64,000 nt of DNA from an uncultured Clostridia bacterium (GTDB lineage Bacteria; Bacillota; Clostridia; TANB77; CAG-508), in assembly GCA_934130435.1 (NCBI GenBank), contig CAKOYB010000002.1, positions 115,609 to 179,608 of the forward strand. The letters run 5' to 3'. Made by a program: the position numbers and the translations under genes. A model generated the notes under the pieces. The model ran no database searches, was not told where the DNA came from, and saw only the letters and a program-made list of their open reading frames with translations. This document shows, piece by piece, positions 6,382 to 6,456 of this stretch (the first letter of the stretch is position 1; each line of letters begins with the position of its first letter).

Positions 6382-6456
6382 CTAATCCCTTTTTGGTAAT
6401 CTACTATAATAGCAATAATGACCACAAGCCATTGCAGAAATGATTAATTTTACCAT
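6382..6456 (-). CDS. Unannotated 24-aa peptide MVKLIISAMACGHYCYYSRLPKRD. Candidate RiPP precursor.
   Basis: AAGGAGGTG Shine-Dalgarno 7 nt upstream of the ATG, overlapping the stop of the upstream radical-SAM gene. Two Cys and three Tyr residues. Below the 60-aa cutoff of the ORF track. Followed by a hairpin. Confidence 0.55.
   Translation of the reverse strand: MVKLIISAMACGHYCYYSRLPKRD

Follow-up and report, generated by a model that had tools for sequence, protein, structure and literature searches.

The window analysed here, i.e. the whole stretch of 64 000 nucleotides (64 kb, G+C content 26.7%) from an uncultured Clostridia bacterium, carries on its minus strand a gene of only 24 codons that directly follows the gene of a radical S-adenosylmethionine (SAM) enzyme with a SPASM domain, denoted rSAM_B, which is itself preceded by the gene of a second enzyme of this kind, rSAM_A. 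The small open reading frame (ORF) and the two enzymes constitute a cassette that is found in Clostridia, Bacilli and DPANN archaea, and the ORF probably encodes the substrate of the two enzymes. The cassette consists of the following features.

6456..6382, minus strand: gene of the 24-amino-acid (aa) peptide, translation MVKLIISAMACGHYCYYSRLPKRD; ATG at 6456..6454, TAG stop at 6384..6382
6461..6470, minus strand: Shine-Dalgarno sequence AAGGAGGTGA, read from the sequence, overlapping the TAA stop of rSAM_B
6469..7746, minus strand: rSAM_B, with a putative N-terminal domain like the recognition element (RRE) found in systems for peptides that are made by the ribosome and modified after translation (RiPP), a radical-SAM domain and a SPASM domain; frame open up to 7821
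7856..9118, minus strand: rSAM_A, second radical-SAM/SPASM enzyme (PF04055, E 1.8e-27; PF13186, E 1.8e-15)

The junction between rSAM_B and the peptide gene reads, on the minus strand, ...AAC TGT AAG GTC GCT TTT TAA GGAGGTGAGAAT ATG GTA AAA TTA ATC ATT TCT GCA ATG GCT TGT GGT CAT TAT TGC TAT TAT AGT AGA TTA CCA AAA AGG GAT TAG, with the TAA stop of rSAM_B at 6471..6469, GGAGG at 6468..6464, 7 nt 5' of the peptide ATG, and KRD as the C-terminus of the peptide. A preliminary description of this DNA had drawn attention to an unannotated, easily missed ORF of 24 aa, with a consensus Shine-Dalgarno sequence that is located 7 nt before the ATG and overlaps the stop codon of an upstream radical-SAM/SPASM gene. 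All of this is borne out by the present analysis, with the addition of the strand (minus), which had been omitted: the upstream gene matches both Radical_SAM (PF04055, E 1.6e-33) and SPASM (PF13186, E 1.6e-11), and the exact 24-aa sequence, like the other bacterial 24-aa peptides that were looked up, is absent from a gene-call collection of 15 billion proteins. Combinations of GGAGG, a spacer of 4–10 nt and a start codon occur 25 times in the window, and 14 of these sites open ORFs of at least 60 aa. Another Shine-Dalgarno sequence with a short ORF, at 21340 (minus strand), was dismissed because it lies inside a longer TTG-start gene that, by eye, appears to be anti-sigma-factor-antagonist-like.

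The 24-codon ORF is a real gene under purifying selection. A search for orthologous loci via the relatives of rSAM_B, with one genome per species, yielded ten loci, in which the rSAM_B orthologs are 79–87% identical to the query in Clostridia metagenome-assembled genomes (MAGs), 57% in a MAG labelled Muribaculaceae, 46% in Nanoarchaeota and 44% in Woesearchaeota; in all ten, a small ORF with a GGAGG-type Shine-Dalgarno sequence is located directly 3' of rSAM_B. A metagenome scan and look-ups of single homologs added about 20 further loci with the same arrangement. Conservation in syntenic loci, on which the preliminary description had made its proposal depend, accordingly holds for some 30 loci of Clostridia, Bacilli and DPANN archaea, across enzyme identities from 87% down to ~40%; the ORF recurs in essentially every related locus with enough downstream sequence, preceded by a GGAGG-type Shine-Dalgarno sequence in nearly all of them. 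The divergence of the gene is dominated by synonymous changes. The window gene and its counterpart in locus L006 (related loci are denoted here by L numbers and peptides by P numbers) differ by 11 synonymous and no non-synonymous codons, and when ten Clostridial copies are aligned, 14 of the variable codon columns contain synonymous changes only and 6 are amino-acid-changing, the last residue being the most variable.

The peptide family is nearly invisible in the current annotation. A peptide profile built on a longer archaeal member matched 32 called proteins in 5.8 billion clusters, unnamed or labelled ‘hypothetical’ and none with a Pfam domain, and 1.84 billion representatives, searched exhaustively with HMMER, gave only 24 matches, one of them spurious, and contributed 6 more distinct peptides. 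The match of the peptide profile to P0211 (1426 aa) was discarded as repetitive and spurious. When the peptide and three of its orthologs were compared with Pfam and NCBIfam (E up to 10), no family was returned, and an Rfam scan of positions 5000–10500 at E up to 1 returned no match, so that this region is not a known RNA element.

The conserved positions of the family were tabulated for 49 distinct peptides anchored on the invariant His (position 0).

Position -1: G, 49/49
Position 0: H, 49/49
Position +1: Y in 45/49, otherwise M/L/Q/I
Position +2: A/S/C in 47/49, otherwise E or N
Position +3: Y or F, 49/49
Position +4: F/L/Y, 49/49
Position +6: E or R, 47/49
Position +7: L/I, 49/49
Position +8: P, 47/49
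Position +10: R, 45/49

The family core can be written as G-H-(Y)-small-[Y/F]-[F/L/Y]-x-x-L-P-x-R. The spacing from the initiator Met to the invariant His is fixed at 11–12 residues, and the core is preceded by hydrophobic, beta-branched residues, namely VKLIIS in bacteria and EVRADKF or AEVLVDLL in archaea. The window peptide would consist of a leader-like, beta-strand stretch (residues 1–10) and the conserved core G12-H13-Y-C-Y16-Y17-S-R-L20-P21-K-R23. The precursors are 22–24 aa long in bacteria and reach 72 aa in archaea, where variable tails extend up to ~50 residues beyond the conserved Arg. The Cys residues of the window peptide are a different matter: Cys is found at position -2 in 5/49 and at +2 in 6/49 peptides, all from the Clostridial clade, and both Cys are conserved within the close Clostridial clade; outside the Clostridial clade, position -2 is S/G/T/A and position +2 is A/S/E/N. 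The L-P-x-R element was also compared with the sulfatase motif C/S-x-P-x-R, to which anSME binds as its recognition site, and this identification was rejected given that the residue at the Cys/Ser position is R/E/N/G. A separate trait of the long-tailed archaeal peptides (P0121–P0150, e.g. that of L008, downstream of 6263) is a Tyr within the last five residues, present in 20 of 28 (...KYQA, ...EYQI, ...KYMN), which is commoner than the composition would suggest and might mark a second site of modification or recognition.

In the rSAM_B frame, the first ATG (7821) adds 25 residues that are found in no ortholog; the likely start is Met26 at 7746, which is preceded by AAGGAT and is favoured because the homologs cover the query from residue 25/26 to the end. 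The cysteines of the CX3CX2C motif (C103/C107/C110) are invariant in 63 sequences, and the SPASM cysteines (C307, C330, C348, C390, C393, C399, C403 and C421) are invariant as well. The AlphaFold2 model of rSAM_B, made with the 63-sequence alignment, has a predicted local distance difference test score (pLDDT) of 92.1 and begins with strands 5–11, 14–19 and 24–27, followed by helices 29–39 and 50–57 (beta-beta-beta-alpha-alpha). In a Foldseek comparison with the PDB, the best match is peptide-bound SuiB (5v1t; E 1e-20, template modelling score 0.70, 454 columns), which is aligned over essentially the full length, and the further matches are, in this order, PqqE, anSME, CteB and SkfB; a sequence search of the PDB with rSAM_B gives the same ranking, with SuiB first and identity of ~20%. 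The N-terminal domain of rSAM_B thus appears to be peptide-recognition-like, and the modelled architecture is that of the leader-binding peptide maturases.

The second enzyme, rSAM_A, has an N-terminal extension of ~90 aa in the clade of the window, and its CX3CX2C cysteines (C97/C101/C104) and SPASM cysteines are invariant. The two enzyme genes are adjacent in 26 of 28 loci. In bacteria and in loci of the Woesearchaeota type (core GGHY), the genes are arranged as A-B-peptide; loci of the Nanoarchaeota type (core SGHYAYF) have the order B-peptide-A. One archaeal locus, L096 (4026–7287), contains three consecutive radical-SAM/SPASM genes, of 339, 317 and 466 aa. Together with the archaeal locus L091, in which no second enzyme is encoded within 6 kb, this arrangement indicates that the number of enzymes is not strictly fixed.

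Upstream of rSAM_A and downstream of the peptide gene, the following putative regulatory features are discernible.

9909..9937, minus strand: sigma-70-type promoter sequence TTGACA-17-TATAAT upstream of the NrtR-like gene (12/12 consensus, best in the scanned region)
9893..9909: operator 1, TGCGTA-N5-TACGCA, exact palindrome abutting the -10 hexamer
9186..9866, minus strand: NrtR/AraR-family regulator (PF21906 NrtR_WHD, E 1.1e-24; PF00293 NUDIX, E 1.5e-14)
9136..9152: operator 2, TGCGTA-N5-TACGCA, exact palindrome between the regulator stop and the rSAM_A start
6342..6368, minus strand: intrinsic-terminator-like hairpin with a 10-bp stem and a T-rich tail, 14 nt past the peptide stop

The nrtR-like gene, rSAM_A, rSAM_B and the peptide gene are predicted to form one transcription unit, with TTGACA-17-TATAAT as its candidate promoter. 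The palindrome TGCGTA-N5-TACGCA occurs exactly twice in the window, and the relaxed pattern TG[CT]GTA-N5-TAC[GA]CA also occurs twice, compared with 0.007 occurrences expected from simulated sequence. Of 12 related loci of Clostridia and Bacilli that were scanned, 9 carry TGYGT-N7-ACRCA, with at most one mismatch, at one or both positions, and L007, L074 and L116 have no such site; the site at the operator-1 position is conserved in loci including L001–L005, L010, L117 and L118, and the equivalent of operator 2 is retained in L002–L006 and L010, whereas in L117 and L118 it precedes the first downstream gene. Operators of NrtR have a GT-N7-AC core (PMC2330246), and the window operators carry this core. 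The closest solved relatives of the regulator are AraR (5bs6) and NrtR (3gz5), of which AraR, an arabinose sensor, is the nearest, and its score against the NCBIfam NtrR equivalog is 153 bits (cut-off 400). A regulator of the NrtR family adjoins the cassette, on its upstream side, in 12 bacterial loci. As in the NrtR/AraR family generally, a Nudix domain is combined with a winged helix, the palindrome is duplicated before the regulator and before its target genes, and an autoregulatory layout fits; unlike in this family, the target is a radical-SAM/peptide operon rather than a known NAD or sugar pathway. A role in NAD biosynthesis was considered and is kept only as speculation, given that the regulator is nearest to AraR and that the window contains no NAD gene. 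At the other end of the unit, the window hairpin has a predicted energy of -15.6 kcal/mol (z -1.6 vs shuffles); a stem-loop is predicted 3' of the peptide gene in 14 of 14 bacterial loci examined, with unrelated sequences, and in 11 of the 14 its stability clearly exceeds that of shuffled sequence (z -3.3 to -7.5).

Several accessory genes accompany the cassette in some lineages, the one nearest to the peptide gene in the window being the following.

5668..6318, minus strand: 216-aa HExxH protein, candidate zinc peptidase, just after the terminator of the peptide gene

This protein has no Pfam or NCBIfam match. The residues H92-E93-L94-F95-H96 and E126-E127 are invariant in 27 homologs, and the AlphaFold2 model (pLDDT 92) gives weak fold matches to aureolysin (probability 0.98, E 0.025) and to M1 and collagenase peptidases. 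Confined to the close Clostridial clade, where synteny is kept in 6 loci, the protein might, judging from the model, be an accessory processing peptidase, an assignment that is uncertain. A CobC-like His_Phos_1 gene separates the regulator from rSAM_A in L117 (5176–5760) and L118 (2179–2763), where it is located downstream of the operator, and in L007 (~2430–3000); its best model is the alpha-ribazole phosphatase CobC, at 91 bits, below the cut-off. Genes for AAA_28 P-loop (NadR-kinase-like) proteins adjoin the cassette in L005 (7166–8272, minus strand), L074 (5838–6983), L091 (5333–5908) and L094/L114 (L114: 126–662), that is, in both bacterial and archaeal loci, with a CYTH fusion in L005 and a similar length in L074. 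In seven archaeal loci, a gene for a protein of 270–302 aa (~279 aa in most) is located upstream of the cassette on the opposite strand (L008: 4008–4844, minus strand; homologs in L009, L085, L086, L091, L092 and L096). This protein has no Pfam, NCBIfam or PDB sequence match; at a guess, made by eye, its N-terminus is winged-helix-like, and it may be the counterpart of the bacterial regulator.

The wider neighbourhood in the window consists of housekeeping and sporulation genes (PolA, cytidine deaminase, QueH-GNAT, RuvB, EF-Ts, S2, SpoIIP and SpoIID), with no transporters, and genes for ABC exporters, C39 peptidases or immunity are absent from the window and from the ~30 loci. The QueH-GNAT gene (10047–11087, minus strand) encodes an epoxyqueuosine reductase QueH fused to a GNAT acetyltransferase; L002 and L010 have nearby only a 150-aa homolog of the GNAT part. 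Two large ORFs next to it, at 11091–12968 and 12983–14488 (minus strand; 625 and 501 aa), have no significant Pfam family. The locus L007, on contig CAZKSN010000004.1 from the MAG labelled Muribaculaceae, contains a cassette of Bacilli-like type, made up of NrtR, a histidine phosphatase, rSAM_A, rSAM_B and the peptide MKVIVSKMAAGHYSYFTNLPTRVK, in a layout nearly identical to that of the Bacilli loci L117 and L118; mis-binning of this contig or a transfer of the cassette may account for this.

Taken together, these observations suggest that the ORF is, with fairly good probability, a translated gene for the substrate (precursor) peptide of a cassette of two radical-SAM/SPASM enzymes and a peptide, which would be cross-linked on its His/aromatic core and would remain intracellular. 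The N-terminal stretch MVKLIISAM, which is beta-strand-prone and lies 11–12 residues from the His, would dock on the N-terminal domain of rSAM_B, after which both enzymes would modify the core G-H-Y-x-[Y/F]-[F/L/Y]. This core can be plausibly read as two back-to-back aromatic-X-X triads, H-Y-C and Y-Y-S in the window peptide and H-Y-A followed by Y-F-x or F-L-E elsewhere: an invariant His and an invariant +3 aromatic residue, variable +1 and +5, a mostly small +2 and a hydrophobic +4 are the pattern expected of tandem triads. The most likely chemistry would be radical C–C cross-linking of the His and Tyr/Phe side chains, of the cyclophane type as in triceptides, where HaaB (HAA), HtkB (HTK) and YhhB (HNR) join His-C2, or the ring of Tyr/Phe, to C-beta of the third residue in the motif (PMC11499958). 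The combination of two enzymes and two triads suggests that each enzyme might form one ring, and L-P-x-R could be another element for recognition or processing. An intracellular site of action is probable for the product, given that the core hardly varies, that the cassette is distributed across domains, that the regulator is of a metabolite type and that export genes are lacking; the product could be a cofactor-like or signalling molecule rather than a bacteriocin.

A more specific, and rather doubtful, version of the intracellular function is that the cassette makes a previously unknown peptide-derived small molecule or cofactor, similar to pyrroloquinoline quinone (PQQ) or mycofactocin and formed by the two enzymes from the His/aromatic core of the 22–24-residue peptide, the production of which would be tied in bacteria to the nucleotide, ADP-ribose or NAD status via the NrtR-type regulator, and which would be kept in the genome-reduced DPANN archaea. 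The recurrent genes for AAA_28(+CYTH) kinase-like proteins and CobC-like phosphatases fit this possibility.

Several observations weigh against the precursor reading as a whole or against parts of it. Both the translation of the ORF and the modification of its product are deduced from comparative analysis, and the RRE-like assignment of the rSAM_B domain derives from a predicted model together with an alignment of the whole chain. The archaeal locus L091 contains rSAM_B and the peptide and has no rSAM_A within 6 kb. Both enzymes stay below every curated NCBIfam cut-off: rSAM_B scores 158.5 bits against MftC (cut-off 265), 145.1 against PqqE (381), 91.5 against AlbA (850), 100.4 against PapB (340) and 125.8 against StsB (625), and the best family matches of rSAM_A are NirJ/AhbD-like (NirJ2), with 185.9 and 176.9 bits (500). 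With respect to the two-triad interpretation, position +2 is E or N in two members and position +5 is variable, and a His-to-aromatic (i to i+3) link, or a modification other than a cross-link, would fit equally well. Finally, most loci are without a leader peptidase, the HExxH protein being limited to one clade.

The alternative explanations differ in how much of this evidence they can accommodate. That the ORF arose by chance in an AT-rich intergenic spacer, with the Shine-Dalgarno sequence idle or part of another signal, would be compatible with the abundance of short ORFs at 27% G+C and with the fact that no gene caller ever called this one, but such an origin is already refuted by the conservation data, i.e. 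the cross-domain conservation of the ORF at the same position, with its Shine-Dalgarno sequence and with synonymous-dominated divergence; together with the lack of an Rfam match in the region, this leaves it a practically negligible probability. The preliminary description itself envisaged Cys as thioether donor, with aromatic residues as possible acceptors. The gene coupled to a radical-SAM/SPASM enzyme stands, as does its likeness to precursors of RiPP or cofactor type, whereas the Cys chemistry is not supported by the family at large, and the second radical-SAM/SPASM gene, the regulator and the cross-domain distribution had been overlooked. A sactipeptide- or ranthipeptide-like RiPP, with thioethers at Cys11 and Cys15 made by the radical-SAM/SPASM enzyme, would agree with the two Cys that flank G-H-Y in the window peptide and are conserved in the close Clostridial clade, and with the distant similarity of the SPASM enzymes to AlbA, PapB, StsB, CteB and SkfB. 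However, the systems with S/G/T/A and A/S/E/N in place of the clade-limited Cys retain both enzymes, the family-wide features are G-H, the aromatic residue at +3 and L-P-x-R, and the scores against the sactipeptide and ranthipeptide maturases (AlbA, PapB and StsB) are far below the cut-offs. A Cys thioether is therefore unlikely as the defining modification of the family and would be at most a lineage-specific extra, and a sacti- or ranthipeptide-like identity of the cassette is very improbable.

Two other readings accept the gene and dispute its role or the destination of its product. The peptide could be an accessory subunit or regulator of the enzyme pair, for instance, a partner of the N-terminal domain or a metal- or cluster-binding microprotein, with the enzymes acting on another, non-peptide substrate. 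The extreme conservation of the peptide, the fixed N-terminal spacing and the lack of proteases or tailoring enzymes in most loci are all in line with such a role, as are the recurrent neighbours of small-molecule or nucleotide type, AAA_28(+CYTH) and the CobC-like histidine phosphatase, and the best matches of rSAM_A to NirJ/AhbD-like enzymes, which act on tetrapyrroles. Yet those matches fall far below the NirJ/AhbD cut-off, the potential metal-binding Cys are not conserved, and peptide maturases, among them SuiB, PqqE and CteB, are typically recognized by just this combination of a recognition-like domain, a radical-SAM domain, a SPASM domain and an adjacent small ORF with a beta-strand-like N-terminus and a conserved aromatic core, which makes the accessory role unlikely. 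Secretion of the product as an antimicrobial or signalling, bacteriocin-like RiPP could be expected from the fact that most of the characterised radical-SAM/SPASM peptides of Bacillota (streptide, sactipeptides, ranthipeptides) are secreted, and the candidate HExxH peptidase after the operon in this clade is in keeping with it. This is nevertheless quite improbable, considering the absence of exporter, C39 peptidase and immunity genes noted above, the location of the cassette amid housekeeping genes, the metabolite-sensing-type regulator, and the core that is nearly invariant from Clostridia to DPANN archaea, as opposed to the variable cores of antimicrobial RiPPs.

Reading the peptide as an intracellular precursor places the cassette next to several known systems, none of which it fully resembles. 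The triceptides, made by three-residue cyclophane-forming enzymes (3-CyFE), are similar in that a small precursor adjoins a radical-SAM/SPASM enzyme, in the aromatic-X-X motifs (with His at 0 and Tyr/Phe at +3 both present in 49 of 49 peptides), in the variability of the residues that follow the aromatic one, and in that links from His-C2 to C-beta have a precedent (PMC11499958). Unlike in triceptides, there are two different radical-SAM/SPASM enzymes per peptide, the leader is ~10 residues long and the whole precursor only 22–24 aa in bacteria, the core, instead of being variable or repeated, hardly changes between Bacteria and Archaea, and control is of the NrtR type. The triceptide precursor motif itself is recognizable in the peptide sequences, as two tandem triads. 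SuiB/StrB, which form the Lys-Trp C–C cross-link of streptide, as well as CteB and SkfB, combine a recognition domain with a radical-SAM and a SPASM domain, an architecture that rSAM_B, with its putative recognition-like domain, would share, and the closest structure is that of SuiB; on the other hand, the identity to SuiB/StrB is ~20%, the present system has no KxxxW motif, quorum-sensing regulator or exporter, and the peptide is encoded downstream of the enzymes.

With PQQ and mycofactocin, the cassette shares a tiny, highly conserved precursor with an aromatic core, enzymes of the radical-SAM/SPASM type, the housekeeping context without export genes, a distribution that looks vertical and broad, and the presence of MftC and PqqE among the top family matches of rSAM_B; the comparison in size with PqqA (~23 aa), made in the preliminary description, was apt. 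Both pathways differ, however, by the lack of the second radical-SAM enzyme found here. In addition, the E-x3-Y motif of PQQ precursors is missing, no Glu being conserved four residues ahead of a Tyr, no pqqB/C/D/F genes are nearby and PqqE scores below the cut-off, and with respect to mycofactocin, there is no C-terminal Val-Tyr, no mftB/D/E/F gene nearby and an MftC score below the cut-off. In the His-Xaa-Ser system, HxsA, a many-repeat proteobacterial protein with His-Xaa-(Ser) motifs, occurs with the paired radical-SAM enzymes HxsB and HxsC. A possible resemblance to this system consists in the paired enzymes and in members of the present family that read H-Y-S, H-M-S, H-L-S or H-Q-S; the Hxs models are not among the best 25 NCBIfam matches of the two enzymes, out of 103 and 75 matching families, respectively. 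By the features that were tested, the cassette falls outside the sactipeptides/ranthipeptides, PQQ and mycofactocin, and no paper was found in the library searched that describes this system, links NrtR with radical SAM or links SPASM peptide systems with DPANN. The cassette most likely represents an undescribed family within the known recognition-dependent radical-SAM/SPASM maturation systems.

Among the main sources of new enzyme chemistry are peptides modified by radical-SAM enzymes, two of which, PQQ and mycofactocin, serve as redox cofactors. Against this background, the cassette stands out for its minimal, near-invariant precursor, two dedicated radical-SAM enzymes, clean regulatory module and span across gut Clostridia, Bacilli and DPANN, which raises the questions of why genome-reduced organisms keep it and what the Nudix regulator senses. 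The called relatives of the peptide are named at most ‘hypothetical protein’, and the family as a whole shows that genes of this class are systematically missed by gene callers. The radical-SAM/peptide operon would also be a new kind of target for a regulator of the NrtR/AraR family.

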